From assembly GCA_963777445.1 (NCBI GenBank), contig CAVZQR010000017.1, forward strand, positions 5,226-69,225: a stretch of 64,000 nucleotides of DNA, read 5' to 3'. This document shows positions 20,762 to 38,152 of the stretch, one piece after another. Made by a program: the position numbers and the translations under genes. Every line of letters starts with the position of its first letter. Position 1 is the first letter of the stretch. Below the pieces are notes generated by a model, which did not search any database, was not told the origin of the DNA, and saw nothing but the letters and a program-made list of their open reading frames with translations. The stretch comes from Candidatus Dormiibacterota bacterium (lineage in GTDB: Bacteria > Chloroflexota > Dormibacteria > Aeolococcales > Aeolococcaceae).

Positions 20762-20909
20762 ATGCGATGCCCAGGTCACCGTCGACGACGGCGTCGAGCG
20801 CGGCGAGGTCGTGACCTGCCCGGAGTGCAACGCCGAACTGGAGGTCATCGGGCTCGATCCTCCACGATTCGTGCTCGCTCCACCGGAAGAGGTCGACTGG
20901 GGTGAGTGA
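20751..20909 (+). CDS. lysW: amino-group carrier protein LysW
   Basis: 52 aa, VCPECDAQ...[10 protein letters not shown] zinc ribbon and C-terminal EEVDWGE. GGAGGAGGAA Shine-Dalgarno ends 4 nt (core GGAGG 7 nt) before GTG 20751. Confidence 0.88.
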
Positions 20910-20913
20910 TCAG

Positions 20914-21774
20914 ATGCGAATCGGCATGCTCTGCTCACGGATCCGCGTCGAGGAGAAGTTGCTGCGCGACGCGCTCGCGCACCGAGGTCTCGACGTCGAG
21001 ATCGTCGACGACCGGGAGTTGACCTTGACGCTGGCGCAGCCCGTCCGGCGCTGGGATGCGGTGCTCGAGCGGAGCATCTCGCAGACACGCGGGCTCGCGG
21101 TGACGCGCGTTCTGGAGTCATGGGGTGTTCCCACGATCAACCGCCACGCCGTCGCCGTGACGTGCGCCAGCAAGCTCGACACTTCGGCGGCGCTCGTGGC
21201 CGCGGGCGTCCCAACGCCCGCGACAGCGCTCGCATTCACCCCCGAGGCGGCCGTGCGCGCGGCGGAGGATCTCGGCTATCCGGTTGTGCTCAAGCCGGTG
21301 ACCGGGTCGTGGGGCAGGCTGCTCGCGAAGATCAACGACCGGGACGCCGCCGAGGCTCTGTTCGAACACAAGGCGCTGCTGGGCGGCCCTGAGCACTCCG
21401 TCTTCTATCTGCAGCGACACGTCGACAAGCCCGGACGCGACATCCGCGCGTTCGTCGTCGGCGACGACGTGATCTGCGCGATCTACCGCGAGTCCGAGCA
21501 CTGGGTCACCAACACCGCTCGCGGCGCCACGACTCGCGATTGCCCCGTCGGCGGAACGCTCCGCCGACTGTCGCTGGATGCTGCGGCTGCGGTCGGCGGT
21601 GGGGTGCTCGCGATCGACCTGCTCGAGGATCACGACAGCCTGGTCGTCAGCGAGGTCAACGCGACCATGGAGTTCAAGAACTCGATCGACGTGACCGGCG
21701 TCGACATCCCCGGGCACGTCGCAGACCATGTCCGCGCGGTCGCCCGCGGTGCGCCGATCGCGGTGGGTGGCTGA
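20914..21774 (+). CDS. lysX: ATP-grasp ligase LysX (alpha-aminoadipate--LysW ligase)
   Basis: RimK-type ATP-grasp: [39 protein letters not shown]. Start ATG 20914 or GTG 20902. Confidence 0.88.
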
Positions 21775-21775
21775 C

Positions 21776-22843: not shown

Positions 22844-23886
22844 TCCGGGCGCTGGTCGTCGGGGGCGCCGGCTACGCGGGCGGTGAGGTGGTGCGCCTCC
22901 TGGCCGGCCATCCCGAGATCGAGGTGGTCCAGGTCACCTCCGAGCGGCTTGCGGGCAAGCCCGTTGCTTCGGTCCACCCTCCCCTGCGTGGGCGGACCGA
23001 GCTGCGCTTCTCGTCGCGCGATAACCTGCTCGATGCCGACGTGGTCTTCGCGGCCATGAGCCACGGCGAATCCAGCGGCGCGATCGAGCACCTGCGCGCA
23101 GCGGCGCCGGTCGTGATCGACCTCGGCGCCGACTTCCGGCTGCGTGACCCTCAGGACTATCCGCGCTGGTACGGCTGGAGCCACCCGGCGCCCGGGCTGC
23201 TCGACGAGGCGGTTTACGGGCTCGCCGAGATGCACCGGGCGGAGATCGGGTCGGCGTCGCTCATCGCCGCCGGCGGCTGCCTGGCGACAGCGTCGATCCT
23301 CGGCCTCGCCCCGCTCGCCTGCGCCGGGTTGCTCGACCCGGCCATCCCCCTGGTCATGGAGGCGAAGGTCGGCTCGTCGGCGGGTGGCGCACAGGCGGGA
23401 GATGCGACCCACCACGCCCACCGAAGCGGCGAGATCCGCTCCTATGCACCCACCGGGCACCGCCACACCGCGGAGATCGTCCAGGAGCTGCACCTCGCCC
23501 CATCGAGCCAGCAGGTCGCCTTCTCCGCGACGGCGGTCGAAGCGGTTCGCGGCGTGCACATCACCGCCCACGCTTTCATCAACGCCGACCTGGACGACCG
23601 CGAGCTCTGGCGGGTGTATCGATCGCGCTACGGCTCCGAGCCGTTCGTCCGCGTCGTCAAGTCGCATTCCGGGCTGCACCGCTCACCCTCCCCGAAGTTG
23701 CTCAGCGGGACCAACTACTGCGACGTCAGCTTCGAGCGTGATCGGCATTCGCGCCGCGTCGTGGTCACCGCCGCGCTCGACAATCTCGTGAAGGGATCGG
23801 CGGGCCAGGCGGTGCAGGCGTTCAACGTGCGCCACGGGTTCCCCGAGACACTCGGTCTCGAGTTCGGCGGCCTGTACCCCATCTGA
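22840..23886 (+). CDS. lysY: LysY ([LysW]-aminoadipyl-phosphate reductase, ArgC-like)
   Basis: MIRALVVGGAGYAGGE...GGCLATAS (Cys in an ArgC-like context). ATGA overlap with lysK. Confidence 0.85.
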   Translation: MIRALVVGGAGYAGGEVVRLLAGHPEIEVVQVTSERLAGKPVASVHPPLRGRTELRFSSRDNLLDADVVFAAMSHGESSGAIEHLRAAAPVVIDLGADFRLRDPQDYPRWYGWSHPAPGLLDEAVYGLAEMHRAEIGSASLIAAGGCLATASILGLAPLACAGLLDPAIPLVMEAKVGSSAGGAQAGDATHHAHRSGEIRSYAPTGHRHTAEIVQELHLAPSSQQVAFSATAVEAVRGVHITAHAFINADLDDRELWRVYRSRYGSEPFVRVVKSHSGLHRSPSPKLLSGTNYCDVSFERDRHSRRVVVTAALDNLVKGSAGQAVQAFNVRHGFPETLGLEFGGLYPI

Positions 23887-24677
23887 TGATCGTCGTGAAG
23901 ATCGGCGGCAGCGTTCGCCGGCTCGACCCGCTCCTCGAGGACATCGCAACCACGACCGAGCAGACGGTGGTGGTCCACGGAGCGAGCAGGGCTCTCGACG
24001 ACCTGTCCACCCGTCTTGGCAGCCCTCCCCGCATGGTCGAATCGGAGCGCGGCGACGTGAGCCGATTCACCGATGCGACAACCATGGACCACTTCCTGAT
24101 GGCCTATGCCGGCAGAGCCAACAAGCGGATCGTCGAGCGGCTCAGGCAGCTCGGCGTCAACGCGTTCGGCATGTGCGGCCTCGACGGCGGCCTGGTTCGA
24201 GGGACCCGGCGACCGGCCCTGCGCATCCGCGAGAACGGCCGGACCAAGGTGCTCCACGACAACCACGTGGGCAGCATCGACTCGGTCGATGCGGTGCTCC
24301 TCGGCCGGCTGCTCGCCGCCCGCTTGACGCCGGTGATCTGCCCGCCGATCGCCGCCGAGGACGGCACCGCCATCAATGTCGACGGCGACCGCCTCGCCGC
24401 GGAGATTGCGGTTGCTCTGGGGGCAACCCTGCTGATGATCTTCTCCGACACGCCGGGACTCCTGCGCGACCCCGACGATGAGACGAGCCTCATCGGACGG
24501 CTCTCGACGCGCGAGGCGGAGCACCTCATTCCGGCCATTGGTGGCAGGGCGCGAGTGAAGCTCCGCGCCAGCGCCGAGGCCCGGCTGCGCGGGGTCGGAG
24601 CCGTCTGCGTCGCCGACGGGCGTGTCCAGCGCCCGCTGTTCAGCGCGCTGTCCGGCGCTGGAACCTGGGTGCGTTAG
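23886..24677 (+). CDS. lysZ: LysZ ([LysW]-aminoadipate kinase, ArgB-like)
   Basis: MIVVKIGGS...VVVHGAS...NVDGDRLAAEIA, amino-acid kinase fold motifs. Confidence 0.85.
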   Translation: MIVVKIGGSVRRLDPLLEDIATTTEQTVVVHGASRALDDLSTRLGSPPRMVESERGDVSRFTDATTMDHFLMAYAGRANKRIVERLRQLGVNAFGMCGLDGGLVRGTRRPALRIRENGRTKVLHDNHVGSIDSVDAVLLGRLLAARLTPVICPPIAAEDGTAINVDGDRLAAEIAVALGATLLMIFSDTPGLLRDPDDETSLIGRLSTREAEHLIPAIGGRARVKLRASAEARLRGVGAVCVADGRVQRPLFSALSGAGTWVR

Positions 24678-24709
24678 CGACCCGTCCGGCTACCCTGACG
24701 GCCACTCCC

Positions 24710-25504
24710 ATGGTCCAGCGTTCCTTTCTCGAGCAATCGACGGCGATCGCCTTCGCACATCGCGGCGGCGGCGGCGAGGCTCCGGAGAACACGCTGCCCG
24801 CGTTCGAGGCCGCCGTGGCGATGGGATACCGGTACCTGGAGACCGACGTCCAGTTGACCCGCGACGGTGCGCTCCTCGCCTTTCACGACAGCAGTCTGGA
24901 CCGCTTGACCGATCGCGTCGGGAGGATCAGCGCGCTGTCCTTCGCCGAGGTTCGCGAGGCCGACGCGGGATACGCGTTCAGCCCGGACGGCGGGCTCAAC
25001 TTCCCCTTTCGGGGCACCGGTGTCGTGGTCCCGACGCTCGAGGAACTGCTCACCAGGTGGGAGGACGTCTACCTCAACATCGACGCCAAGTCCGATGACA
25101 CCGTCGCCCCGCTTGTCGCCTTGGTCAGCCGCCTGGATGCGTTCAATCGCGTCTGTATCGGATCGTTCTCCGACCGTCGCGTCGCGCGCATCCGCGCGCT
25201 GGCGCGGGGGCGGATCTGCTCGTCGATGGGGCAGGCGGCGACCGCGATGGCCTACGCCGTCTCGCGGACCGGCCGGATGCCACGTTTCCACGCCGACTGC
25301 CTTCAGGTGCCGCAGCGTTGGGGGCGGCTTCGTATCGACGCACGGTTCGTCAGGGCCGCTCACCGCGCCGGGCTGCCGGTGCACGTCTGGACCGTGGACG
25401 ACGAGGCCCAGATGGGGCTTCTGCTCGACCTCGGCGTCGACGGGATCATGACCGACCGTCCCCGCATCTTGAAACGGGTCTTCGAGGCGCGCGGTCTGTG
25501 GTGA
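24710..25504 (+). CDS. glycerophosphodiester phosphodiesterase family protein
   Basis: AHRGGGGEAPENTLPAF...ETDVQLTRDG...VWTVDD. Confidence 0.85.
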   Translation: MVQRSFLEQSTAIAFAHRGGGGEAPENTLPAFEAAVAMGYRYLETDVQLTRDGALLAFHDSSLDRLTDRVGRISALSFAEVREADAGYAFSPDGGLNFPFRGTGVVVPTLEELLTRWEDVYLNIDAKSDDTVAPLVALVSRLDAFNRVCIGSFSDRRVARIRALARGRICSSMGQAATAMAYAVSRTGRMPRFHADCLQVPQRWGRLRIDARFVRAAHRAGLPVHVWTVDDEAQMGLLLDLGVDGIMTDRPRILKRVFEARGLW

Positions 25505-25522
25505 CCGCCGGAGCGCGCTATC

Positions 25523-27331
25523 GTGGGATGGATGCTGCCATCTGACCCTGGGGTGAAGTACATCCCGGCCGCCGATGCCGAGGACTGGTACGCGCCTGAC
25601 GAGCATCTGCGGTGGATGACCCGCCGGACGGTCGGCGAGGCCCTGTGGCCGGTGGCCGAGGGAGCGCTTCGCGAGCTCGGAACGATGGTGCCCCAGGTGA
25701 TCGAGCCGCTTGCCCGGGCAGCGGACCGGCATCCGCCCGTGCTGCGCCCCTACAACGGACGCGGCGAGCGCATCGATGAGATCGAGTTCCATCCCGCGTA
25801 CCGGGAGCTCGAATCCAGGGTGCTCGGCTTCGGCGCGGTTCGCGCCGCGTACGCACCGGGCTGGCGCGGCCTCCCCCAACGCGCACCCCGCAGCCTGGTC
25901 ACGGCAATGCTCTATCTCATCCTCGAGTCCGACCAGGCGATCACCGGCTGTCCGATCGGGATGATGGACGCCGCGGCTCGCTGCCTCGAGCGCAATGACC
26001 CTGCGCTCGCCGCGCGATTCGTCCCCGGCATCATCGATGACACCGGTGAGCACCGCACGGTCGCGATGTTCCTGACCGAGAAGGCAGGCGGATCAGATGT
26101 CGGTGCAAATGAGACGGTCGCGACTCCCATGGGCGCTGGCACATGGCGCCTCTCCGGTGAGAAGTGGTTCGCAAGCTGTGCGCACAGCGACCTGATCCTG
26201 GTGCTCGCTCGACCCGCAGGCGCGCCACCAGGACCGCGCGGGCTGGGCCTCTTCCTCATGCCGCGACACCTCGAGGACGGGACCCGCAACTCCTACGTCA
26301 TCCACCGCCTCAAGGAGAAGTTCGGGACCCACGCGATGGCGTCGGCCGAGGTGGGGCTGCGTGACGCCTTCGCATGGCAGGTGGGCGCACTCGAGCGCGG
26401 CCTGGCGCAGATGATGGATATGGTCAACGCGACCAGGATCGGCATCGCCACGGCAACCGCAGGTGCGATGCGACGCAGCGCGTTCGAAGCACTGACGCAT
26501 ACGCGCGGTCGATCGACGTTCGGGCGCCGTCTCGATCTGCATCCGTTGATGCGCGACACGCTTGCGGACCTCGTCGTGGACTCGGTGGCCGGGCTCACGG
26601 CAGCCATGGGGGTGGCCGAGCTGTCCGACGGCGCCGACTCCGGCGATCACGAGGCCGCCGCAGCCCTGCGCCTGCTGACACCGCTGTTCAAGATGCATGG
26701 AACCGAACGCGCGCGCGTCTGCGCCACCGAGGCCATGGAGGTCCGCGGTGGCAATGGGTTCATCGAAGACTGGCCGGACGCGCGCCTCCTGCGCGATGTG
26801 TACGTGCACGCGATCTGGGAGGGATCGGGCAACGTGATCGCGCTCGATGTGCAGCGGGCAATCGAGCACGGTGCGCTCCCGGGCTACCTCGGCGATACGG
26901 AACGCCGGGCCGAGGGCGTGTCGACGGGTGGTGCCGTCGCGCCACTCGGTGGCGTGCTTCTCGATGGGCTGCAGCGCCTCGAAGCGCAGCTTGGTGCGTT
27001 GAACGGCATCGACGACCCGGATGCGCGCCAGCTGCCACTCCGTCGCATCGCCCGGCGCATGGCGGTGCTGGCCATCGGCGCGCGGCTCGCGGAGCAGGCC
27101 AACGAGTTCGCGGCCGACACGGGCAGCGGCCGCCTCGGCTGGATCGCAGCGCGCTACCTGTCCCGTCTTGGCGGGGAGGCAGCCGTCGCGGAGCTGGCCG
27201 ACGACGCCTCGTGGCTGCCGCACGCGGACGCGTTGCTGCACGGCGGCGAGGTCCCGCTGACCGTGGCCACGGCGGCGGCTCGACGCACCGCGTCGGCGCT
27301 GGGGGCGCCCGGCGCGCTGATCCCCGTTTAG
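25523..27331 (+). CDS. AidB-like acyl-CoA dehydrogenase family protein
   Basis: 602 aa. FLTEKAGGSDVGANET, GEKWFAS, EVRGGNGFIED, IWEGSGNV. Confidence 0.8.
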   Translation: MGWMLPSDPGVKYIPAADAEDWYAPDEHLRWMTRRTVGEALWPVAEGALRELGTMVPQVIEPLARAADRHPPVLRPYNGRGERIDEIEFHPAYRELESRVLGFGAVRAAYAPGWRGLPQRAPRSLVTAMLYLILESDQAITGCPIGMMDAAARCLERNDPALAARFVPGIIDDTGEHRTVAMFLTEKAGGSDVGANETVATPMGAGTWRLSGEKWFASCAHSDLILVLARPAGAPPGPRGLGLFLMPRHLEDGTRNSYVIHRLKEKFGTHAMASAEVGLRDAFAWQVGALERGLAQMMDMVNATRIGIATATAGAMRRSAFEALTHTRGRSTFGRRLDLHPLMRDTLADLVVDSVAGLTAAMGVAELSDGADSGDHEAAAALRLLTPLFKMHGTERARVCATEAMEVRGGNGFIEDWPDARLLRDVYVHAIWEGSGNVIALDVQRAIEHGALPGYLGDTERRAEGVSTGGAVAPLGGVLLDGLQRLEAQLGALNGIDDPDARQLPLRRIARRMAVLAIGARLAEQANEFAADTGSGRLGWIAARYLSRLGGEAAVAELADDASWLPHADALLHGGEVPLTVATAAARRTASALGAPGALIPV

Positions 27332-27993
27332 GACTGCACCACGAGGGCGAAGGCGAACCCGTCCCAGCCCTTGACACCGACCGTCTGAATCACCGCCGGA
27401 GCCAGGCGCCGGTCGGCGCCCATCTGCTCGATGAGGCGGCGCATGCCCGCCGTGTCGGGGTCCGAGCTCTCGGTATCGATCAGCTTCCCCTGGCGGACCA
27501 CGTTGTCCACCACGATGAGGCTGCCGGGATGCGCGAGATCCACGGCGGTGCTGAAGTACTCTGGGGTGTTGCGCTTGTCGGCATCGATGAAGACGAGGTC
27601 GAAGGCCTCGGCGTGATCCGCCCTGAGCTTCGCGAGGCTCTCGAGAGCCGGGCCGACGCGCACCTCGACCTTGCCGTCGAGACCGGCGCGCGCGATGTTG
27701 CGCCGCGCAACCTCGGCGTGACGCCCTTCAAGCTCGAGACTGATCAGGCTTCCACCGTCCGGCAGCGCGCGCCCCATCCAGATGGCGCTGTACCCGCCGA
27801 GCGTCCCGATCTCGAGGATGCGCCGAGCGTGGATGGCGCGGGCCAGCAGGTGCAGAAACTGCCCCTGTGCCGGGGACACCGCGATGTTCGGCAGCGCGGC
27901 GCTCTCAGTGATGGCGGCCTCGAGCACCGGGTCGGCGGGTTGCAGCAGTGCGGTCGTGAAAGCGTCGACGGAGTCCCAGCGATCGTCATTCAT
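27328..27993 (-). CDS. class I SAM-dependent O-methyltransferase (caffeoyl-CoA OMT-like)
   Basis: ILEIGTLGGYSAIWM, FDLVFIDADK, GSLIVVDNV. TAGAGT hexamer 8 nt upstream of ATG 27993. Confidence 0.85.
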   Translation of the reverse strand: MNDDRWDSVDAFTTALLQPADPVLEAAITESAALPNIAVSPAQGQFLHLLARAIHARRILEIGTLGGYSAIWMGRALPDGGSLISLELEGRHAEVARRNIARAGLDGKVEVRVGPALESLAKLRADHAEAFDLVFIDADKRNTPEYFSTAVDLAHPGSLIVVDNVVRQGKLIDTESSDPDTAGMRRLIEQMGADRRLAPAVIQTVGVKGWDGFAFALVVQS

Positions 27994-28015
27994 GGTGCGG
28001 CACTCTAGCGTCGCA

Positions 28016-28792
28016 TCAGACCCGAGCTCGACGCCGCGCCACCCAGACCTCCTCGGACGGCCAGCGCCTCGCCCAGGCGACGGTGACGAAGGGATAGCGC
28101 GTGACCGCCTCGTCCGAGGGGCGGAGCTCGATCAGGTCCTCGATGTCGAATCCCGAGTTGCGCAGGAGACGGATCCAGTCGCCGTGGTTGAGATGGAATT
28201 CCACGCCCGTTTCGTCGGGCCATTCGTACCGGTGCATGCCGAAGTAGTCGCGCCGGAGGTCCGTCCCCGCCGGTCCCTCGGCGTCGGAATCGGTCATGGT
28301 GAGCATGAGCAACGCGCCGTTGCCGAGAAAGATCAGCCGGCCCCCGGGTCGGAGCAGCCGGGCTGCCTCGGGGATCCAGCGATACGGGTCACACCAGATC
28401 GCCGCGCCGTACTCACTGATGGCGAGGTCGAAGCTGGCATCGGCGAGCGGCGCCGCTTCGGCGCTGCCCTGGATCAGCGGGAAGTGGAGGTCGTGCTCAT
28501 CCTGGAGGGCTCGCGCGGTCGCAAGCTGGTTCTCCGACAGGTCGATCCCGACCGGCCTCGCACCGCGTCGTGCCAGCCAGGCAGACACGTAGCCGGTGCC
28601 ACACCCGAGCTCGATGGTGTCAAGGCCGTCCACGTCGGGGAGGAGGTGCGCCTCGCTCTCCGGGATGTTCCAGATTCCCCACGAGGGCTCGGACGACCAG
28701 TTCCGCCGTCCCGGACCGGCATACTCCGCTGCCGACGTGTTCCAGGCGGCGCGATTGCGTTCGATGTGGTCGCCAGTCTCGTCTGTTGTCAT
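28016..28792 (-). CDS. class I SAM-dependent methyltransferase
   Basis: TIELGCGTGYVSAWLARRG, LLRPGGRLIF. ATG 28792 chosen because ORF-track start 28858 would run through tRNA-His. TACAGT hexamer 8 nt upstream. Confidence 0.8.
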   Translation of the reverse strand: MTTDETGDHIERNRAAWNTSAAEYAGPGRRNWSSEPSWGIWNIPESEAHLLPDVDGLDTIELGCGTGYVSAWLARRGARPVGIDLSENQLATARALQDEHDLHFPLIQGSAEAAPLADASFDLAISEYGAAIWCDPYRWIPEAARLLRPGGRLIFLGNGALLMLTMTDSDAEGPAGTDLRRDYFGMHRYEWPDETGVEFHLNHGDWIRLLRNSGFDIEDLIELRPSDEAVTRYPFVTVAWARRWPSEEVWVARRRARV

Positions 28793-28815
28793 CGGCGGCG
28801 ACTGTAGCGGGGAAT

Positions 28816-28893
28816 TGGGGTGGCCAGCGGGATTCGAACCCGCGACCTCCAGGGCCACAACCTGGCACTCTAACCAGCTGAGCTATGGCCACC
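28816..28893 (-). tRNA. tRNA-His (GUG) with encoded G-1 and encoded CCA
   Basis: Folded by hand: GGTGGCCATAGCTCAGCTGGTTAGAGTGCCAGGTTGTGGCCCTGGAGGTCGCGGGTTCGAATCCCGCTGGCCACCCCA. Anticodon loop TTGTGGC; T-loop GGTTCGAAT. Confidence 0.9.
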
Positions 28894-28920
28894 ATGGGAC
28901 TCCGGAGAGGAGGCTCGGCG

Positions 28921-28926
28921 ATTATA
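28921..28926 (-). promoter_or_regulatory. perfect TATAAT on the minus strand, 27 nt upstream of the tRNA-His 5' end
   Basis: Plus strand ATTATA at 28921-28926. No convincing -35 seen. Confidence 0.35.
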
Positions 28927-28978
28927 TGGCGCGGTGGTCGGCGGTCCGGACGAATCGCCGCAGGTACACTCGCCGCGC

Positions 28979-29054
28979 GCCCCCGTAGCTCAGCGGATAG
29001 AGCAGCGAGCTTCTAACTCGACGGTCGTGGGTTCGACTCCTACCGGGGGCGCCA
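28979..29054 (+). tRNA. tRNA-Arg (UCU) with encoded CCA
   Basis: Folded by hand: GCCCCCG TA GCTC AGCGGATA GAGC A GCGAG CTTCTAA CTCGA CGGTC GTGGG TTCGACT CCTAC CGGGGGC G CCA. TACACT hexamer 8 nt upstream of the 5' end. Confidence 0.9.
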
Positions 29055-29093
29055 TTCGGGGCGCCATTCGGGGCGCCATTCGGGGCGCCATTC
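29046..29093 (+). repeat. 4 perfect tandem copies of GGGGCGCCATTC, the first copy being the tRNA-Arg 3' end
   Basis: Counted directly: 29046-57, 29058-69, 29070-81, 29082-93. Confidence 0.95.
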
Positions 29094-29126
29094 GTCGGAC
29101 GCGTACTTGGGAAGGCAGCTTTTCGG

Positions 29127-30684
29127 ATGACGGACTCGAAACCATCGGTGCGTGAACGCGCAGCGACGACCGCCCCGTGGTCGGGGATCTCGGCCGGCGT
29201 TGCGATGATCGTCGCGTTCCGCATCCCTGCGTTCGTCGAGCCCCACTGGTATGCCGACGAGAGCACGTACGCCTACGTCGGACGCACCATCTTCAGCGGC
29301 GGCACCCTCTACAGCTCACCGGGAGCCTGGGACAACAAACCGCCGGTGCAGTACTGGATCTACGGGATCGTGACCCACTATCTCGGCTACTCGGAGGCCG
29401 CGATCCACCTGGTTCCCTTCGTGAGCGCCATCGCGGCGGTGATCGCCGTCGGTTGGGGGGTTGCCCGCCTCACCGGTTCGCGCCGGCGGGCCGGCGTCGC
29501 CTGCGTGCTCGCCGCGCTGATCATCGGTCCCCCGATCTTCGACTCCGAGCTCTTCCTTCCCGAGGGAGCGCTGATCGGCCCGATGACCTGGGCGGGCATG
29601 TTGATGCTCGTGCACATCGCCTCGCCGTGGTGGGCGGGATCGCATCGCTGGGCACCCTACGTCGCCGGGGCTCTGGCGTCGATCGCTCTGGGCATGCAGC
29701 AGACGGTCATCGCCGACGTGGTCGCGATCGGCATCATCCTGCTCATCTCGCGGCCGCGAGCGTGGCGCGATCTGCTCCGTTTCTACGGGACCGGGGCGGT
29801 GGTGATGATGCTGTGGTTGCTCCCAACGGTCATCGCATCCGGGGTGGGGACGACATGGTTCGCAACTGTCGCGTTCTACCAGATCTACGCTCACAACTCG
29901 CTTCCCGTGACTGTCCTCGACCGCCCTGCTGCACTTCGCGGGGATTGCCGGAGGCGCGATCGCGATCATCCTCGGGGCGGCACTCGTCGCGCGCCGAACT
30001 CGCAACTGGTTCTGGACGCTCTGGGTGCTCGCGGGCATCGATCTCCTGGTTGCCGGATCCGCTCACTTCCCGTATCCGCACCTCGTCCTGCCGGCGATCC
30101 CCTGGGTCTGCGCCGCCCTCGCCGCGACTCCGTGGAACCCATGGCCCGTGTTCGTCTCGCGCAGCAGTGCGGTGCGGCTCGGCACAGCGCTGCTCGCGAT
30201 CGGCGTCCTGCTCGCTGCTGCGCAGGGCTCGTACGCGGGATCGTACTGGCTCAACGGTCGGAGCCTGTCCGCGTACTACGCCAACGGCTACGCAAGCCTG
30301 GTGAGCAGTTCGGAGCGAACCCTGTGGCAGAACAGCTTCTCGCGCAACATCGTCTACGACCGCGCCATCACCAGCTGGCTCGTCACGCACCACTACGCCA
30401 ATGCGTCGGCGGTTGTCTGGAACGTCTCAGACGAATGGATCTACCTCCTGACCCCACTCAACACGGTGCTGCCGACGGTCGGCCTCTTCAACGATGACGT
30501 GCTCCTGGGGAGTCGCGACGCAGTCGGTCCGTACGTCGCCGAAAAGCGGCCCACCGTCATCGTCATCGATCAGCCAAGCCTGGTCCTTCGTCCGACCGTC
30601 ATCCCGGTGATCGCGCAGGACTACGTGGCCGTGTACCGGATCGGGGTCGACACCGTCTACATCGAGCGCACCCGGGTGCGCTGA
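29127..30684 (+). CDS. GT-C fold (PMT_2/ArnT-like) membrane glycosyltransferase, paralogue 1, with a +1 frame change between about 29911 and 29930
   Basis: N half (frame of 29127): PHWYADESTYAYVG...WDNKPPVQYW, polytopic. C half (frame of ORF 30025..30684, open from 29911) continues the TM helices and the soluble tail. Confidence 0.7.
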
Positions 30685-30694
30685 GGGAACCCGC

Positions 30695-32201
30695 TCAACC
30701 CGAGCCGCCTGACCGAACGTACAGCTCAATCCCATTGGCGTCGATCACCTGTTCATAGCTGTGGGTGCTGATGAACCCACGGATGTCATGCAGGTTCTCA
30801 ATGCCGAGTGGGGTGATCAGTATCAGTTCGGGCGGTGTCGCGTTCATCCTCGCGAGGATCCCGCCGGGACCCTTCTCGAGCGCGAGGGTCACGTAGAGCG
30901 GACCGCTGCGAGTCGGCGGCAGGAGGTTTTCATCGACCAGCGGCCATGCGAGGTTGGTCCAGAGCATCGCCGTGGCGCCGGTGAGGTTGTGGCTGCTGAT
31001 CCATTGCTCGGCCTGCGCCTCGCCATAGTTGACGGTGCCGCCGAAATAGGTGTCGTAGTCCAGCTCGGAGATCGACCCGGAGACGTAGCTGACCGCATTT
31101 GCGTAGTACCCGAAACTCCACACCGTCGTGCGATAACCGGCCATGAAGAGCGACCACCCGGTGGAGGCGACCACCGCAAAGAGAGCGCCCGCCGCGAGCA
31201 CGCGTGGCCGGCGGATGCCATGTGACAGCCGGCCGGGATACCGGGACGCGAGCCCCGTCAACAGCATGACGAGGGGGATCATCACGGGCAGCAGAAAGTG
31301 CTCGTAAGCATATCCCGCGGCGATCGCGGTGAAGAGCAGCGCCGTGCACCAGATTCGCAGCAGCTCGAGCCGCCCGTCCTTCGTGTTGCGGAACCACCAG
31401 GCGACGAGGACCATCGCGATGACGATGGCGATGCGCACGGCGTAGGCCGGGAGTTCGATCGCCGAGCGCGTCGTTGACGTAATCGACGTACGAGGCAACG
31501 AGTGCGTACCAGACATTGTGAGCGCCGGATGTGACCATGAAGGGAACGATCGCCGCCGCCACCGTCATCGTGAACGCTCCCCCGACGATCAGCATCGATC
31601 GCGACCTGCGGCGCACCAGGCACCACAGCATCACCGAGGCGAAGTCCGCGATGGCGGTCTGCTGGATCAGGAAGCCACACGCGAACAGCACGCCGATCAG
31701 CACCAGGATGATGGCGCGGGGCCGGCGCCCAGCAGCGGTGGACGAGCACAGGAACCACACCATCGCCAACGTCACGGGGCCGATGAGCAGGCTCTCGGGG
31801 AGCGCCAGGTTGCCGTCCAGCATCGGCGAACCGATGATCACCGCGATCGCCAGCCCACCCCACAGCGCGGCGCGTTTCGTGAACAGACGCGACATGCCCC
31901 ACGGAGCGGCGATCATGGCGGCAAGCCCGCTCAGGATCGTGAGCGCATGGAGGCCGGCCTCGCTGCTCCCGAAGAGCGCCTCGCTGAGCCCGTAGACGCC
32001 GAACAGCAGCGGCGGTTTGTTGTTCCACGCATTGACGTAGAGGCCGTACCCGGCATGCGTCAGCCACGCGGTCGACGCGTAACCGGCCTCGTCCGAGTAC
32101 CACTGCGGTTCGATGAGTGACGGGAGGCGCAGCAGCAGATACAGCGCTACCGGCAGGACGATGTGCAGGTTGCGCTTCATCCGTGCCGGGACCTCGGACA
32201 T
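30695..32201 (-). CDS. GT-C fold (PMT_2/ArnT-like) membrane glycosyltransferase, paralogue 2, with a +1 frame change near 31450-31470
   Basis: N half from ATG 32201: PQWYSDEAGYASTA...WNNKPPLLFG. C half is the frame of ORF 30695..31516. Homologous to paralogue 1 over both halves. Confidence 0.7.
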
Positions 32202-32354
32202 CGTGTTCTCGTCCTGCGCGTTGGAGTGTCCGCGCGCCGGGCGCGCCGGGAGCGCATATTGTGAAGAAATCATGGTGCCACGCGTCAATCGATCCCCAGG
32301 GGCGGCGTCAGCGCAGGTACCTCGATCCGGTGACATCCCGTAGCATCGCCAGGC

Positions 32355-33026
32355 GTGAGCCAAACGCCGGTCTCGACCCGCCTCCACCTGGTTCGCCATT
32401 GCGACGTCCGCAACCCTGACGGTGTGCTCTACGGTCACCTGCCTGACTTTCCGCTGAGCGAGAAGGGCGTCGAGCAGGCGCACGCGCTCGGCCGGTACTT
32501 CGCGCGCAGCACGGCCCGCCAGATCTACTCGAGTCCACTCGAGCGCGCCCGGCAAACGGCGGAGATCATCGCGTCCTATCTCGACTCGGTGCCGATCACC
32601 TACACGGAGGACCTGATCGAGACGCGTTTCGGCCTGTATCTCCAGGGCGTCCCCCCCAAGCAGGTGCCGTGGCGGCGCCCGCTCTGGCTGATCCACATGG
32701 TGTTGCCGGGCGTCCTCCGCAACGACGAGTCGGTGGCGGGACTGGCCACCCGGGTGCGCAGGCCGCTCATGCGGTTGCTCGCGGAGCATCCCGGTGATGG
32801 CGGTATCTGCGTCAGCCACGGTGATCCGATCCAGGGATTCTGGGTCACCGCCGAGCACCGGCCACGTTACGCACTGCACCGGCTCCAGTGCGCCAAAGGC
32901 GGGCTCCTCGAGCTCGACTACGAGGGTGAGGCGCTGCGCCGCCTGAGTTACATCTCCCCGGCTCGGATCGCCGAGCTTGCGCCGGCAGCGGGTCAGACCG
33001 ACGCAGGTTCTCGATCGGGCGTCTGA
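32355..33026 (+). CDS. histidine phosphatase (phosphoglycerate mutase-like) family protein
   Basis: LHLVRHCDV...SSPLERARQTA...VSHGDPI. TAGCAT hexamer 8 nt upstream of GTG 32355. Confidence 0.8.
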   Translation: MSQTPVSTRLHLVRHCDVRNPDGVLYGHLPDFPLSEKGVEQAHALGRYFARSTARQIYSSPLERARQTAEIIASYLDSVPITYTEDLIETRFGLYLQGVPPKQVPWRRPLWLIHMVLPGVLRNDESVAGLATRVRRPLMRLLAEHPGDGGICVSHGDPIQGFWVTAEHRPRYALHRLQCAKGGLLELDYEGEALRRLSYISPARIAELAPAAGQTDAGSRSGV

Positions 33027-34414
33027 GGCTCACCACTCGCATCGGACGACCAGCGGGGATCGAGCGTGATCGGCTGGCGCCGCTTGCGCTGACGGCGCTC
33101 GAGCAGGGGTCGCAGGTAGAGCTTGGTGAGCAGCCCCGTCATGATCAGGATGAACGAGGTGTACACGAGCAGCACACCCTGGTCGTCATTGACCTGGAAC
33201 AGCGAGTACTGGGTCACGGAGGGGAAGGAGATCGAGAAGTCGACTGCTTTTCCGTTCCTGGTGTCGATCGGGAGTTGTAGCGTCTGACCGAGGAGGATCG
33301 GGATCACCTGCGCATTCGTGAAATACGGCGTCATCCCGGTCGTGTTGAGTTGGTTCACGTTCTGCGGCGCACCGTTGTTGAGACCGAGGTTGCCGACGTA
33401 CAGCTGCATCTCGATCACGGGGTTGCGCGGCGCCACGCCACCCGGGCCGTACCCGGTGGCCGTCGGGTTGATGGATCCGTTGCTGCCGATCGACGGGATC
33501 ACCGTCGCGTCCGGGTAGAAGGACATCTTGGCGCCGATCTGCACGGCCGCCGACGCCCCCGGGATGGTGTAGTTGAAGTCGGGGACCTTCAGGACCCCGT
33601 CCGCGAGGGATTTGTTGCCGATGTTGCTCGAGTTGTCGAAGAACTGGATGGCACCCTCGTACACGGTCTGGCCCGCGGGGTTCTTGACGACGATCGTCGG
33701 CGCCCAGCCGTAGTCCTGCTGATACACGTTGACCCCGTCGACGCTGAGGAAATCGTTGACCAGGATGTCCTTGGTCGCCACCGTCTTCCCGTGGTCGAGG
33801 ACGGTGACATTGCTCACGTAGTTACTCGCCTCACCGTTGGATGCGTATGTCGCCTCGAAGCGGTTGAGGCGCAGCGTGAAGGGCGCGTAGTTCCCGTTGA
33901 AGAGCAGCCCCTGCTGCAGGGTGTCGTAACCGGCCGGCGTGTTCGTGAAGCTCTGACCCTGGGTGAGCGTCACGAGGCCCTGGTACCCGGTCGCCTTCCC
34001 CCAGACGACGGCGATCAGGAGGAGGAAGAACGAGCTGTGAAACAGCCACGATCCCCACTCGCCCCAGTACTGCGGCGTGCGCTTGTACCCGCGCGCGGTC
34101 CGCATGATGAGCGCCCGGCCGCGGCGGATCACGCACCAGCCCAGCGACACGTAGAGCAGGCCGAGCAGCACGTAGAAGACGGGCGATACGAACACCTGGG
34201 TGAGCGGGAGCTGGAGATCCGCGAACAGCACGTTCAGGTTCGGCCACGCGGTGAGGAACGCCTCGACCTTGCCCGGATCCGACGTGTTCTGCTGGGGGAC
34301 GAAGGAGCCGATGAGGACGATGATCAGGATGCCGAGGAGCAGGAAGATCGCGGTCCGCATCCGCGTGTACTCGTGCCAGTACCTCCCGGCCTTCTCCCTG
34401 ACCTTCCCCCTCAC
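32993..34414 (-). CDS. resB: cytochrome c biogenesis protein ResB/Ccs1 family
   Basis: N-terminal TM RTAIFLLLGILIIVLIGSFVPQQ, large Asn/Thr/Gln-rich extracytoplasmic domain, C-terminal TM. GTGA overlap with the upstream gene. Confidence 0.75.
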   Translation of the reverse strand: MRGKVREKAGRYWHEYTRMRTAIFLLLGILIIVLIGSFVPQQNTSDPGKVEAFLTAWPNLNVLFADLQLPLTQVFVSPVFYVLLGLLYVSLGWCVIRRGRALIMRTARGYKRTPQYWGEWGSWLFHSSFFLLLIAVVWGKATGYQGLVTLTQGQSFTNTPAGYDTLQQGLLFNGNYAPFTLRLNRFEATYASNGEASNYVSNVTVLDHGKTVATKDILVNDFLSVDGVNVYQQDYGWAPTIVVKNPAGQTVYEGAIQFFDNSSNIGNKSLADGVLKVPDFNYTIPGASAAVQIGAKMSFYPDATVIPSIGSNGSINPTATGYGPGGVAPRNPVIEMQLYVGNLGLNNGAPQNVNQLNTTGMTPYFTNAQVIPILLGQTLQLPIDTRNGKAVDFSISFPSVTQYSLFQVNDDQGVLLVYTSFILIMTGLLTKLYLRPLLERRQRKRRQPITLDPRWSSDASGEPQTPDREPASV

Positions 34415-35067
34415 CGCAAAGCGCCTGAGCGCAGTAAGCCTTTCGGATCGAAGGCGCCGGCCAGACCCGGCTGCCAGCTCGAGGTTCCCGGGGGTTTGGA
34501 GGTTGCCGTGCGCGCCGCGGCCGGCTCGAGGCGGAAGGTGACCGCCGCGATCACCGCCAGCCGGCCCGCGCTGCCCAGCAGCGCGGCGATCAGGTCGTAA
34601 CCGACGACGTCCTTGAGCGCCGAGCCGCCCGCCTTGACCGCTTCCCCTGTCGAGAGGACCGCCTCCACGCCCGCCAGCGAGCGCCGCGGCACTTCGCCGC
34701 GAGCCACCAGCGTGCCGACCCGCGCCGACCCGGTCTCGGCGTCGAGCCCGACCACCGCCAGCCTGTCCCCGGCCACCGAGGAGCGAACCTGCGCAACCGT
34801 CGCGCCTGCGCCGGCCCGGACGGTGAGGCCGGCGGCCGCGACCTGGATCTCGGCAAGCCGATGGACGCTGAGAATGATCCCGCCGCGCTCGGGCGCGCCG
34901 CCCGGTGCCGACGGGGCGCCGCTGGTCACGCTGATCGGGACTCCGTGCTCGTTGCAGAAGTTCGCGACCACGATGAGTGCATGCGCGTCGGCCGGGCTCA
35001 CCACATCGCCCGTGACCCCATCGGGGCTCACGATCTCGACAAACCCCTTGAGCAGTTCGTCGTTCAC
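34411..35067 (-). CDS. small FAD-binding (PCMH/GlcE-like) domain protein
   Basis: 218 aa from GTG 35067, which overlaps the nuoN stop as GTGA. SGAPSAPGGAPERGGIILS...AGAGATV...VKNVVGYDL-like ALKDVVGYDL. Confidence 0.65.
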   Translation of the reverse strand: MNDELLKGFVEIVSPDGVTGDVVSPADAHALIVVANFCNEHGVPISVTSGAPSAPGGAPERGGIILSVHRLAEIQVAAAGLTVRAGAGATVAQVRSSVAGDRLAVVGLDAETGSARVGTLVARGEVPRRSLAGVEAVLSTGEAVKAGGSALKDVVGYDLIAALLGSAGRLAVIAAVTFRLEPAAARTATSKPPGTSSWQPGLAGAFDPKGLLRSGALR

Positions 35068-36605
35068 ACGATCAACCCTTTCAGCGAGGCGCTCGCCGCC
35101 GTGTAGACGAGCACGATCATGACTCCGAGGATGAGGGTCCCGGCTGTGGTGGCGACCAGCACCGCGCTGCCGGAGAAACCCGTGCGCGACCAGCGGTATT
35201 CGTCCGCGCCGACCGCCGGACGCTGGTACATGAGCAGGCCGACGCGCAGGTAGTAGAAGGCGGAGACCGCGCTGGTTGCGATGCCCCAGAGCGCGAGCGG
35301 TACCTGTCCGGCGTTGATGGCCGCGGTGAACACGAGAAACTTGCCGAAGAAGCCCGCGGTCGGCGGGAACCCACCGAGCGAGAAGAGAAAGAGCGCCATG
35401 CTGGCCGCCACGAACGGCCGGCGATGCGCGAGCCCGCGCAACCCGTCGTAGCTGTCGAGGTCCTCCCCGCGGCCGGCCATGATGGTGATGACCGCGAACG
35501 CGCCGATGTTGGTCACCGCGTACGCGGCCAGGTAGTACAGAACTCCGATCGTCCCGAACGAGCTGGTCTGCCCCGACGGCAGCAGCACCGGGCCGACCGC
35601 GACACCGATGAGGATGTATCCGGCCTGCGCGATGCCCGAGTAGGCGAGCATGCGCTTGACGCTCGTCTGCGTGAGTGCGGCGATGTTGCCGACCACCATC
35701 GAGGTGATCGCCACCAGCGCGACCACCGGCTCCCAGTGCTGGTAGAAATGGGTTCCCCCGCCGTCGAACGTGTACGTGAAAACCCGGACGAGGGCGGCGA
35801 ACGCGGCGACCTTGGTGGTCACGCTCATGAATGTCGTGACCGACGTCGGCGCCCCCTGGTACACGTCGGGAGTCCAGGAGTGGAATGGAGCCGCCGACAC
35901 CTTGAACGCGAAGCCGATGAAGAGCAGCAGCACGCCCGCAAGCAGGAGCGGATCGACCGTCATCGTGGTCTGACCCTGGATGGCCGCGGCGATCTGTGCG
36001 AGCTGCGTGTGGCCCGTCTCGCCGTAGATCAGCGCCATGCCGAAGAGCAGGAAGCCCGACGCGAAGCCGCCGAGCAGCAGGTACTTGAGCGCCGCTTCCT
36101 GCGAGCGTTCCTCGTGCCGCGAGAAGCCGCTGAGCACGTAGAGCGCCAGGGAGAGCAATTCGATCGCCAGGAAGATGACCATCAGACTCGTCGCCCCTGC
36201 GAGGAGCATCATCCCGAGGGTCGCGGCGACGATCAGCGCGTAGTACTCGCCGTAGTGGATGCCGCGTCGGTTCAGGTAGTTCGGGCTGATCATCACCACG
36301 AGCCCGGCGCTCACCAGGAGGATCGCGTCGACGAACAGCGCGAAGCGGTCGTACGCGAAGGAGCCGGAGTACACCAGGCGCCCAGGGTTCGCGTCGAACC
36401 ACGCCCAGATCGTCACAGCGAACGCGGCCGCGATGCCGAGCAACGCGAACCCCGCGAGCCAGCTCCGCCTCGACGCCGGAATCACCAGGTCGAGGAGCAT
36501 CAGCAGGAGGAACGCACCGCCGAGGACGAGTTCGGGAAGAATGCCGACGAGGTCGCGTCCGCCGGGAAACGTCAGCGGAACCGGGGATGCCGCGATCAGC
36601 ATCAC
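35064..36605 (-). CDS. nuoN: NADH-quinone oxidoreductase subunit N
   Basis: 513-aa polytopic antiporter-like subunit, last in nuo order. GTGA overlap with nuoM. Confidence 0.9.
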   Translation of the reverse strand: MMLIAASPVPLTFPGGRDLVGILPELVLGGAFLLLMLLDLVIPASRRSWLAGFALLGIAAAFAVTIWAWFDANPGRLVYSGSFAYDRFALFVDAILLVSAGLVVMISPNYLNRRGIHYGEYYALIVAATLGMMLLAGATSLMVIFLAIELLSLALYVLSGFSRHEERSQEAALKYLLLGGFASGFLLFGMALIYGETGHTQLAQIAAAIQGQTTMTVDPLLLAGVLLLFIGFAFKVSAAPFHSWTPDVYQGAPTSVTTFMSVTTKVAAFAALVRVFTYTFDGGGTHFYQHWEPVVALVAITSMVVGNIAALTQTSVKRMLAYSGIAQAGYILIGVAVGPVLLPSGQTSSFGTIGVLYYLAAYAVTNIGAFAVITIMAGRGEDLDSYDGLRGLAHRRPFVAASMALFLFSLGGFPPTAGFFGKFLVFTAAINAGQVPLALWGIATSAVSAFYYLRVGLLMYQRPAVGADEYRWSRTGFSGSAVLVATTAGTLILGVMIVLVYTAASASLKGLIV

Positions 36606-38152
36606 TGCGTTCCCGGGTTGGATGCGGCCGGCTGTATCAGGCTCACATAGGTGCTCACCGATCGCGTGGAGACGTCGGTGATCGGCTTCGGATACAGTCC
36701 GATGAAGATCATCATCGCGACGAGCGGCACCAGCAACAGCCCCTCACCGAGGCGCAGGTCGTGCACTCCCTCGGTCCGCGGCTTGGGAGGGTCGTGCATC
36801 AGCCCCTGGTGGAGGCGAAGCATGTACCACGCAGCCAGCACGACGCCTCCGCCGGCGAGCACCGCGTAGACCCAGTTGAGCTGGAACGCTCCCAGCATGA
36901 TCGTGAACTCACCGACGAAGCTGTTCATGCCGGGCATGCCGAGTCCGGCGAGGGTCGCGACCAGGAAGAAGAAGTACAGCCACGGCATTCGGCGTTCGAG
37001 ACCCGACAGCTCACCGAGATCGCGCGTCCCGGTGCGCGCCTCGACATAGCCGACGATGAGAAACAGCGCGCTGATGATGATCCCGTGGTTGATGATCTGG
37101 ATCACCGCGCCGTTGATCCCGTTGTCGGTGAGCGAGAAGATGCCCAGCGCGATGAACCCGAGGTGGCTGATGCTCGCGTATGCGACGATCCGTTTGAGAT
37201 CGCGCTCCGAGAGTGCCATCAACGCTCCGTAGATGATGCTGAGCACGGCGAATGCGGCCAGCACGAACCGGTACTTCTCCATCTCCCCGGGGAAGAGCGT
37301 CAATGCGAAGCGGATGAAGCCGTAGGCACCGAGCTTGCTGACCACGCCCGCAAAGAACACCAGGACTGCGGGCGGGCACGCCTCGTAGAGGTCGGGGAGC
37401 CACGTGTGCAGTGGAACGATCGGGATCTTGATCGCGAACGCGAGCGCGAAGCAGATGAATGCCAGCTCCTTGGGCGTGAAGGTGGTCACGTGGATGATCG
37501 GAATGACAAACGCGCTCCCCGAGCTGATCGGCTGCGCGAGGATGCTCTCGAGGTCGAACGATCCCGATGGCGACTGGATGTAGAGATAGATGATCGCCAC
37601 CAGCATCAGCAGACTGCCGGCGACGGTGTACACGATGAACTTGAGGGTCGCCGGGCCTCGCTTGTCACCCCCCCAGTTGCTGAGCAGGACGTAGAGAGGA
37701 ACCAGCATCCCCTCCCAGAACATGTAGAAGAGCAGCAGGTCGATCGACAGCAGGACGCCGGTGGTGGCGGCCTCGGTCAGCAGCACCAGGGTGCAGTAGA
37801 AGCGCAGACGGTCGGTCGTCTTGCGCGAGATCGCGAGCGCCCCAAGCAGGAACACGCCCGCGTTGAGCGCGAGCAACCAGGCGGAGATGCCGTCGATCCC
37901 GAGGTGATAGGTGGCGTTGAGGGCCGGCAACCAGGCGTGGGTCTCCTCAAAATGCAGGGGCAGCGGTCCGTTGGTCGCCTTGTTGCCGGGCATCCAGAGC
38001 AGGAGCAGCGTGACGATCACCGCCCCGGCGAGCGTCGCGAAGATCGTGAGCCCCTTCACCACCGCTGTGAGGCGGCGCGGGACGAGTTGGAGCAGGATCG
38101 CCGCCCCGGCGGGAATGACGATCAGCAGCGTGAGCCAGGGGATGTGATTCAC
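36602..38152 (-). CDS. nuoM: NADH-quinone oxidoreductase subunit M
   Basis: Antiporter-like subunit. GTG 38152 overlaps the nuoL stop as GTGA; alternative GTG 38170. Confidence 0.9.
   Translation of the reverse strand: MNHIPWLTLLIVIPAGAAILLQLVPRRLTAVVKGLTIFATLAGAVIVTLLLLWMPGNKATNGPLPLHFEETHAWLPALNATYHLGIDGISAWLLALNAGVFLLGALAISRKTTDRLRFYCTLVLLTEAATTGVLLSIDLLLFYMFWEGMLVPLYVLLSNWGGDKRGPATLKFIVYTVAGSLLMLVAIIYLYIQSPSGSFDLESILAQPISSGSAFVIPIIHVTTFTPKELAFICFALAFAIKIPIVPLHTWLPDLYEACPPAVLVFFAGVVSKLGAYGFIRFALTLFPGEMEKYRFVLAAFAVLSIIYGALMALSERDLKRIVAYASISHLGFIALGIFSLTDNGINGAVIQIINHGIIISALFLIVGYVEARTGTRDLGELSGLERRMPWLYFFFLVATLAGLGMPGMNSFVGEFTIMLGAFQLNWVYAVLAGGGVVLAAWYMLRLHQGLMHDPPKPRTEGVHDLRLGEGLLLVPLVAMMIFIGLYPKPITDVSTRSVSTYVSLIQPAASNPGTQ

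Follow-up and report, generated by a model that had tools for sequence, protein, structure and literature searches.

We found a pair of convergent GT-C (ArnT/PMT_2-like) glycosyltransferase paralogs, termed here P1 (+ strand, 29127-30684) and P2 (− strand, 32201-30695), in the window (the whole stretch of 64,000 nucleotides of DNA that was analyzed), each of which passes into the +1 frame within the same inter-helix loop. These are most likely ordinary intact single-ORF membrane glycosyltransferases that constitute a convergent pair conserved in Candidatus Dormibacterota, and both frameshifts are probably assembly artifacts, each caused by the insertion of a single wrong base into the consensus. 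Neither relatives nor near-identical short-read contigs have the extra bases; hence, the breaks are most likely consensus errors rather than recoding.

Two convergent paralogs with a frame change in the same loop

The original frame of P1 runs from ATG 29127 to ...NSLPVTVL (~29919), beyond which good protein is found only in the +1 frame that opens after TGA 29908-10 and terminates at the stop at 30682-84. On the opposite strand, P2 runs in its original frame from ATG 32201 to ...NDALGDR (31455) and continues as protein only in the +1 frame, up to the stop at 30695-97. The removal of one base per gene (29920 in P1; 31454 in P2) restores full-length proteins of 518 and 501 aa, which align end to end with each other at ~30-35% identity (tblastn) and likewise with intact orthologs (Table 1). 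Past the junctions, the unshifted upstream frames extend for another 175-190 codons as Arg-rich nonsense with no stop there. The two junctions are separated by only 2 alignment columns (PVTVL/AALLHF in P1 and GDR/LPAYAVR in P2, with the slash at the junction). Reading frames, Pfam matches and tblastn alignments agree in this respect with the original prediction, which had described two old convergent GT-C paralogs shifted to +1 in the same loop.

When the full 64 kb were surveyed with a codon-usage Viterbi model, same-strand frame switches without a nearby stop were recovered only at the P1 and P2 sites. A flicker at 56.7-57.0 kb was rejected as a further frameshift, as it corresponds to the low-complexity, Pro-rich end of a gene, after which comes an overlapping start (ATGA). 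The frame switch that had been placed at ~29925 in P1 is borne out, with 29917-29927 as the interval in which the exact position of the indel is ambiguous. The closest relatives are best matched by an extra A at 29920, the within-cluster relatives reading VT(A/L/M/V)LAG(M/T)LHF at this point. Reading the surplus base instead as a C added to CCC, with VLDRLLHF as the result and both shifts at the same Arg/Leu boundary, is possible, but the LAG(M/T)L of the closest relatives favors A 29920. In P2, the insertion changes GAGTC to GAGTTC on the + strand, i.e., GA[A]CTC on the coding strand. In almost every related locus, P1 is likewise preceded by the 3′ end of this tRNA-Arg(TCT), a conserved neighbor that lies outside the frameshift question.

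Table 1. Coordinates of the two paralogs, their surplus bases and the adjoining tRNA in the window
Feature	Position	Strand	Evidence or remark
P1 N-terminal part, aa 1-264, original frame	29127..29919	+	PMT_2, 30.7 bits; tblastn 100% to mended P1 (P1fix) 1-264
P1 surplus base A, placement ambiguous within 29917-29927	29920	+	1-nt insertion by blastn vs. syntenic L001
P1 C-terminal part, aa 265-518 and stop, +1 frame	29921..30684	+	tblastn 100% to P1fix 266-518, other frame
P2 N-terminal part, aa 1-249, original frame	31455..32201	−	PMT_2, 31.2 bits; PMT, 23.1 bits; tblastn
P2 surplus base, one T of TT on the + strand (A of coding CGA[A]CTC)	31454	−	inside a GAGTC/GACTC site
P2 C-terminal part, aa 250-501 and stop, +1 frame	30695..31453	−	tblastn
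tRNA-Arg(TCT), directly upstream of P1	28979..29054	+	ARAGORN

Family, fold and placement of the junctions

The N-terminal halves of both proteins are recognized by the Pfam PMT_2 profile (PF13231) above its gathering score of 26.1 bits, and P2 is additionally recognized by PMT (PF02366) above the cut-off of 22.7 bits. The first extracytoplasmic loop displays an acidic pair, D44 E45, in an HWYxDES motif (PQWYSDEAGY in P2), which is invariant in 21-22 homologs and presumably catalytic; it is accompanied in this first loop region by a W-D-N-K-P-P motif. Relatives carry the database name '4-amino-4-deoxy-L-arabinose transferase-like glycosyltransferase'. A sequence profile search of the PDB gave no meaningful match to any solved structure. 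The structure was modeled with AlphaFold2 on the ortholog P0001, which is 93% identical to mended P1 (pLDDT 73.5, pTM 0.73), and the best PDB matches of this model in Foldseek are ArnT (5f15/5ezm), AglB, STT3, ALG9 and Pmt4 (probability 1.0, TM 0.35-0.51).

In the P0001 model, the break site corresponds to residues 258-262, which form a short loop that joins two predicted helices (240-257 and 263-290). Both break sites fall in the most variable stretch of their respective proteins (95th and 99th entropy percentile), and DNA identity to L001, a syntenic contig that is 92% identical, is locally 82% around the P2 site. The two insertions lie within two codons of a homologous position in the only paralog pair of the window, a coincidence with a chance of ~1e-3 or less if insertions are uniformly distributed, which counts against an artifact. 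Their location in the most variable segment explains this coincidence only partly.

The genes in related loci

The P1/P2 pair is present in 25 of 26 related Candidatus Dormibacterota loci, and both genes are intact single ORFs in 24 of these 25; the ortholog alignment that had been suggested as a check thereby speaks against a conserved split or overlapping two-ORF architecture. Both genes are also intact in L001 (518 and 546 aa), which has neither extra base. Full-length proteins (512-564 aa) make up about 50 of the 61 homologs of mended P1, and the 90% cluster that contains the P1 of the window includes at least nine intact 518-aa proteins. The split ORFs of the window were found on one contig only (302,419 bp), and a plasmid search with the locus (megablast) gave no match. 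An exact look-up of the neighboring ResB and histidine phosphatase proteins yielded no recorded contig. The sole other locus with a shifted pair is L021, which has one frameshift per gene at positions that differ from those of the window; we rejected the idea that its two frameshifts are at homologous positions, as they fall in alignment columns 498 and 430.

Compared with the intact P0001, P1 is 94.3% identical in its N-terminal part and 92.1% in its C-terminal part, with no further lesions, and P2 is 89.6% and 86.5% identical in the corresponding halves to the intact L001 ortholog. Hence, both halves of P1 and P2 are equally conserved and free of secondary lesions, and synonymous changes dominate. 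The original prediction had read the conservation of the halves as an argument against a disabling lesion; it shows only that the change is either extremely recent or not real.

Short-read contigs across the junctions

For the short-read comparison we used Logan contigs of public runs (2-7x depth) rather than raw reads of the source sample. Contigs from three metagenomes (X1, X9 and X13) have 0 mismatches to the window over 195-287 nt and lack base 31454, which is the only indel relative to near-identical contigs within 20001-40000. The extra base of P2 is therefore missing in accurate contigs of the same strain, and it is also missing in X2, X3 and L001. At the P1 junction, the contigs of all seven runs that cover the site are one base shorter, the spanning strains being 94-96% identical; the X1 contig ends at 29919 and, thus, the same-strain short-read support covers the P2 site and not P1. 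The 31-mers spanning either insertion are found in no indexed public run, and exact-pattern scans of metagenome contigs for both versions of the P1 junction (extra base present or absent) and for the flank on its left returned no match. No RNA runs turned up. The window probably has a third insertion, at 5789: an X9 contig lacks this base, and its removal yields a HAD-like hydrolase with a shorter, more usual C-terminus. We rejected a generally noisy assembly, as the window differs from near-identical contigs by only 2-3 indels in 60 kb. Among the explanations originally offered, these comparisons favor coincident assembly indels, the extra bases being absent in relatives and that of P2 also in the identical-flank contigs of three runs.

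It is unlikely, though by no means negligible, that both insertions are real, very recent and strain-private frameshifts, by which the pair was inactivated in the population dominating the source sample. Phage or other selection for the loss of a surface glycan could be the cause, for instance, as could relaxed selection on the partner gene after the first had been lost. The pair is conserved together and probably functionally linked, which makes joint loss plausible. The only two clear frameshifts in the 64 kb are both in P1 and P2, L021 likewise has one frameshift in each gene, and the P1 site has no same-strain read coverage. Against this, an intact P2 allele with identical flanks is found in three independent metagenomes and the mutant allele in no indexed run, neither gene shows secondary decay, and the placement in the same loop is unexpected for a real loss of function too.

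A recurrent GA[A]CT insertion in Nanopore-only assemblies

We found seven homology-verified frameshifts in 11 Nanopore-only MFD-LR loci (149 kb) vs. none in 16 short-read loci (188 kb; p=0.003), and the frameshift density of the window (2-3 in 64 kb, ~1 per 21 kb) is about equal to that of the Nanopore-only loci. The MFD-LR genomes were assembled from Nanopore reads only, with Flye and one Medaka polishing (PMC12313526), and the assembly from which the window derives is probably also a long-read-only MAG (Nanopore, Flye and one Medaka round). The GA[A]CT insertion accounts for 4/7 frameshifts in the Nanopore-only relatives; altogether, GACT to GAACT makes up five of nine events (P2 of the window, L003, L015 and L021 twice), with a chance probability of ~6e-13. 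Four of these five events sit in GACTC/GAGTC, and the signature occurs on either strand relative to coding; the error rate per GACTC site is about 1-2% here. This is a recurrent and context-specific error in the assemblies of one technology. The P2 lesion would belong to this technology-linked class, in which an extra A inside GACT(C) gives GAACT(C), and which may be triggered by base modification, possibly methylation, at GAGTC/GANTC sites. The P1 insertion is outside a GACT context.

The distribution of the signature weighs further against strain-private mutations: in P2 and L021, as well as in unrelated genes of L003 and L015, it is confined to Nanopore-only assemblies, and 188 kb of short-read sequence from the lineage is free of frameshifts. 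Within the Nanopore loci, frameshifts are not concentrated in the GT-C pair (two in 34 kb inside the pair vs. five in 115 kb outside). TCGA was rejected as an error motif, as its 637 sites in the window make it uninformative.

Recoding and split genes as improbable readings

Recoding and split genes, even when taken jointly, are very unlikely. One version posits programmed +1 ribosomal frameshifting or four-base decoding at the Arg/Leu loop (P2 CGA-A-CUC; P1 near GAC-CGC-C-CUG), with full-length enzymes as the product. Exactly +1 is indeed needed at nearly the same place in both genes, the downstream halves are intact, and skipping one base at either site would give a product of normal length. 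However, the shift is not conserved, as L001, the full-length members of the 90% cluster and nearly all pair-bearing loci are in frame, and the identical-flank contigs that are in frame at P2 imply that the signal must have arisen in both genes within one strain. The contexts themselves (CUC GAC CGC and GAU CGA ACU) offer no re-pairing P-site codon and no in-frame stop, and there is no shared upstream stimulator, canonical start or Shine-Dalgarno-like feature near the junctions, nor a slippery site or stimulator shared with relatives. The sole adjoining tRNA, a tRNA-Arg(TCT), is ordinary, its anticodon loop being 7 nt long as called by ARAGORN, and the P2 lesion matches a DNA-level artifact signature that is strand-independent. 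The +1 recoding raised in the original prediction is hence highly improbable, given also that the 92%-identical L001 lacks both extra bases and that the otherwise identical contigs of three runs lack that of P2; the remarks on CCC-G made in its context have no bearing on the question.

A genuine two-ORF split, in which the catalytic N-terminal module and the C-terminal module are translated separately and the cut falls in a permissive loop between them, would accord with the position of the break in a short loop between predicted helices, in the most variable stretch of both proteins, and with an ATG at 31516 in the downstream frame of P2. Yet no relative is split, and the upstream frames run on through their long Arg-rich nonsense extensions with no stop. 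In P1, the first canonical start of the new frame is GTG 30025, the use of which would delete a transmembrane helix, and neither this codon nor ATG 31516 of P2 is preceded by a Shine-Dalgarno-like sequence. We accordingly consider such a split exceedingly unlikely. If the insertions are real and their shared position is not due to chance, the loop might tolerate splitting or recoding, resulting in two-piece enzymes or in +1 decoding at the Arg-Leu junction; in a variant of this idea, the extra A in GACT(C) would be a methylation-linked mutational switch that toggles Dormibacterota genes. This, too, is a very remote prospect.

Significance

With consensus errors as the preferred explanation, the biological weight of the locus is small: P1 and P2 are ordinary intact GT-C glycosyltransferases with no evidence of recoding, and their arrangement as a convergent ArnT-like paralog pair beside a tRNA-Arg genuinely characterizes the lineage but is nothing unusual. 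The practical lesson is cautionary: when genomes of this phylum are assembled from long reads only, false splits affect about one in twenty genes, and an extra A in GACT(C) is often the cause. Such splits make pseudogenes and 'split genes' look more numerous than they are and may be mistaken for programmed frameshifting. From the recurrent context, GAGTC/GANTC also emerges as a possible modified motif in Candidatus Dormibacterota.

Comparison with known systems

The likeness to the known +1 frameshifting systems (prfB/RF2, Ty1/Ty3 and antizyme) is confined to the formal need for a +1 shift to obtain a full-length product. Unlike those systems, the junctions feature neither a slow or stop codon with a re-pairing P-site codon nor a Shine-Dalgarno-like stimulator; moreover, the shift is not conserved in orthologs, and the extra base is absent in near-identical strains. 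As the sequence stands, P1 and P2 resemble frameshifted pseudogenes in having one disabling 1-nt insertion per gene, but they differ in having no added lesions, in the conservation of their halves like those of intact orthologs with synonymous changes dominant, and in that their lesions are seen in no independent data set.

Nanopore-only consensus errors offer another parallel. Native R10.4.1 assemblies of a high-G+C bacterium show 2 to ~800 differences per 2.56 Mb (PMC11649196), a range within which the ~1 frameshift per 21 kb of the window falls, and the events share a recurrent, strand-independent context and do not occur in short-read assemblies. The published R10.4.1 errors that are linked to modification consist mostly of substitutions, chiefly C>T and G>A (PMC11610603), whereas the events described here are 1-nt insertions.

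With regard to the enzymes themselves, the multi-pass membrane fold of the P0001 model is superposable on solved GT-C enzymes, with ArnT being the closest (TM 0.51), followed by AglB/STT3, ALG9, PMT and the Emb/Aft enzymes. ArnT and PMT_2-type GT-C enzymes, such as ArnT of Cupriavidus metallidurans (PDB 5F15/5EZM), depend on lipid-phosphate-sugars. P1 and P2 differ from ArnT proper in that sequence identity is only ~15% and in that the NCBIfam equivalog NF009784 scores 21 bits for the P2 ortholog vs. a cut-off of 567 and does not match P1. They further differ from it in forming a conserved convergent paralog pair in Dormibacterota.

Frame changes in the glycosyltransferase pair

P1, the plus-strand member of a convergent pair of GT-C glycosyltransferase genes in the window (67.8% G+C), reads as a good membrane protein from ATG 29127 as far as ...AHNSLPVTVL (~29919); beyond this its original frame is Arg-rich nonsense up to 30497, and the +1 frame, open after TGA 29908-29910, encodes good protein until the stop at 30684. 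Its minus-strand paralog, P2, is likewise good protein from ATG 32201 to ...YVNDALGDR (31455) and nonsense thereafter to 30930, with the +1 frame carrying on until the stop at 30695. Removal of one base from each (29920 in P1; 31454 in P2) yields proteins of 518 and 501 aa, which align over their full length at ~30-35% identity and place the junctions two alignment columns apart. The open reading frames, mended alignment and junction spacing thus agree with the original prediction that both paralogs switch to +1 at the same place. Across all 64 kb, Viterbi segmentation by codon usage recovered these two as the only same-strand frame changes lacking a nearby stop; accordingly, the window is not full of frameshifts. 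Frame flicker near 56.8 kb, considered as a further case, proved to be a proline-rich gene end. The P2 frame remains open upstream of its ATG (32201-32340), and the gene call in L001, a syntenic JGI contig with 92% DNA identity, begins 45 codons earlier; nevertheless, translation probably does begin at ATG 32201, because orthologs align only from the MSEVP... start.

We hold the two switches to be, in all likelihood, consensus insertion errors. Programmed frameshifting is highly improbable: the shift sites (CUC GAC CGC in P1; GAU CGA ACU in P2) offer neither P-site re-pairing nor an in-frame stop. A conserved split into two genes seems just as remote, as the new frames are without a well-placed start: the first canonical one in P1 is GTG 30025, 35 codons downstream of the junction, in P2 an ATG lies 20 codons upstream, and no Shine-Dalgarno-like sequence precedes either.

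Intact relatives and sequencing-run evidence

Both genes are intact in L001 (518 and 546 aa), and, set against this contig, the pair has just two uncompensated indels, an extra window base at ~29920 and another at 31454. Among the 25 loci with the pair, 24 encode each gene in a single frame, the window's own 90% protein cluster includes at least nine intact 518-aa members, and its split ORFs (219 and 273 aa) are recorded from one contig only; hence, the frameshifts are not common to these relatives. The N- and C-terminal halves are equally similar to intact orthologs (94.3% and 92.1% in P1; 89.6% and 86.5% in P2), P1 differs from its ortholog mostly by synonymous changes in both halves, and comparison of both halves of either gene with intact orthologs revealed no sign of decay. 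Any real lesion would therefore be extremely recent; we regard real strain-private mutation of both genes, the remaining alternative, as unlikely.

In one study, three soil-metagenome runs (X1, X9, X13) have Logan contigs that match 31249-31551 with zero mismatches but lack base 31454, which brings the P2 insertion close to being demonstrated as a consensus error. Over 60 kb, the contigs of this study that are ≥98% alike show only one other indel, in a single contig (see the table). Without that base, the C-terminus of a HAD-like hydrolase becomes shorter with a more usual ending, and the overlap of this gene with the convergent gene 4827-5774 (85 nt) largely disappears; the base is therefore probably a third surplus one in the window. 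A near-identical X1 contig stops at 29919, at the P1 junction, and all seven runs whose contigs cross this junction (X2, X3, X5, X16, X22, X26, X27; 94-96% alike) have one base fewer. The 31-mers across either insertion occur in no indexed run. For P1, the reading as a consensus error draws on the uniformly intact relatives together with the background error rate.

A technology-linked insertion signature

Among the related genomes are many 'MFD' long-read ones whose contig names follow the Flye style; these were assembled with Flye from Nanopore reads only and polished by one Medaka round (PMC12313526); we assume that the window is an assembly of this type. The same frame census on all 27 related loci, with candidates checked by homology, confirmed seven frameshifts in the 149 kb of 11 Nanopore-only loci versus none in the 188 kb of 16 short-read ones (p=0.003). 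The resulting density of one per ~21 kb is the same as the window's 2-3 per 64 kb, and across the Nanopore loci the GT-C pair is hit no more often than its flanks.

Positions of frameshifts and surplus bases, with insertion contexts (extra base in brackets)
Locus	Position	Context	Remarks
L021	7327	GA[A]CTCC	public Nanopore-only Dormibacterota genome; homology-verified
L021	8015	GA[A]CTCC	as above
L003	1148	TTCGA[A]CTT	as above
L015	223	GAG[T]TCGAG	as above
L004	5400		as above
L004	5725		as above
L027	~4670		as above
Window, P2	31454	GGGAG[T]TCGATC	
Window, ORF 5690-6424 (-)	5789		absent from X9 contig (depth 2, 2 mismatches)

Four of the seven verified frameshifts consist of an A added to GACT(C), and the P2 insertion is a fifth case of an A gained inside GACT; four of these five fall within GACTC/GAGTC, irrespective of which strand is coding. 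The probability that five out of nine events would share this context by chance is ~6e-13; ~1-2% of GACTC sites are affected (1/97 in the window; 3-4/190 in the Nanopore loci). L021 has one such error in each GT-C gene, at non-homologous positions. Of the eight GACTCC sites present in its 94% relative L014, six are changed in L021 (two insertions, four substitutions). This hints that a modified GAGTC/GANTC-type motif disturbs basecalling, and the GACT insertions may be tied to methylation at such sites. R10.4.1 native-DNA assemblies of a high-G+C bacterium are reported to retain 2 to ~800 differences per 2.56 Mb (PMC11649196), and base modification has been documented to cause systematic errors in R10.4.1 data, chiefly substitutions (PMC11610603).

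Positional coincidence and strain variability

Two of the window's 2-3 surplus bases occupy nearly the same position in two paralogs, no more than two codons apart, which is improbable under uniform placement (~1e-3 or less), a figure to be read in light of the finding having been selected for being a coincidence. The junction falls in that patch of each gene which varies most and is polymorphic between strains, with a SNP cluster at 29912-29927 in P1 and a local identity to L001 of 82% around 31454; mixed-strain pile-ups, hardest to polish in such a patch, may plausibly contribute to the coincidence. In P2, conserved Arg-Leu codons happen to form a GACTC site. The gene pair is strain-variable: mid-P2 (31079-31827) has 82-84% DNA identity to L001 versus 91-96% in the rest of a 5.5-kb syntenic block, and X1 holds two P1 haplotypes at 30258-30547 (1 and 13 mismatches).

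Genomic setting and affinities of the pair

The pair is flanked by tRNA-His/tRNA-Arg on one side and by a histidine phosphatase and ResB on the other. Just upstream of P1, 29046-29094 is a perfect 12-nt tandem repeat (GGGGCGCCATTC, 4.1 copies), whose unit copies the 3′ acceptor end of tRNA-Arg(TCT), CCA included; the X1 contig and L001 have a single copy, and the Nanopore-only L015 has a similar repeat of unit GGGGGCGCCAGTTC. Integrations at the tRNA end may have left it as a scar, or it could reflect genuine repeat variation or an artifact of assembly. Both genes are present in 25 of 26 related Dormibacterota loci. The sole related locus with a P1 ortholog but no adjoining P2 ortholog, L005 (DATLRB010000023.1), is labeled Candidatus Saccharimonadales; its P1 is 77% identical to Dormibacterota genes, which suggests a mislabeled or mis-binned contig.

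P1 and P2 are ordinary intact GT-C glycosyltransferases. The N-terminal halves of both match Pfam PMT_2 above the gathering score, and homologs of mended P1, from soil and peat metagenomes and Candidatus Dormibacterota genomes, are nearly all single ORFs of 512-564 aa; several are named 'ArnT-like glycosyltransferase' in their source records. D44, E45 and a WDNKPP motif are invariant. The AlphaFold2 model of a 93%-identical P1 ortholog (pLDDT 73.5) features a multi-pass, entirely helical membrane domain and, after it, a small alpha/beta domain; the junction lies in a short loop (258-262) that joins predicted helices 240-257 and 263-290. The junction stretch is among the most variable in both protein families (95th and 99th percentiles of 9-residue entropy). 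This model matches ArnT (5f15) with a TM-score of 0.51, as well as other GT-C enzymes.
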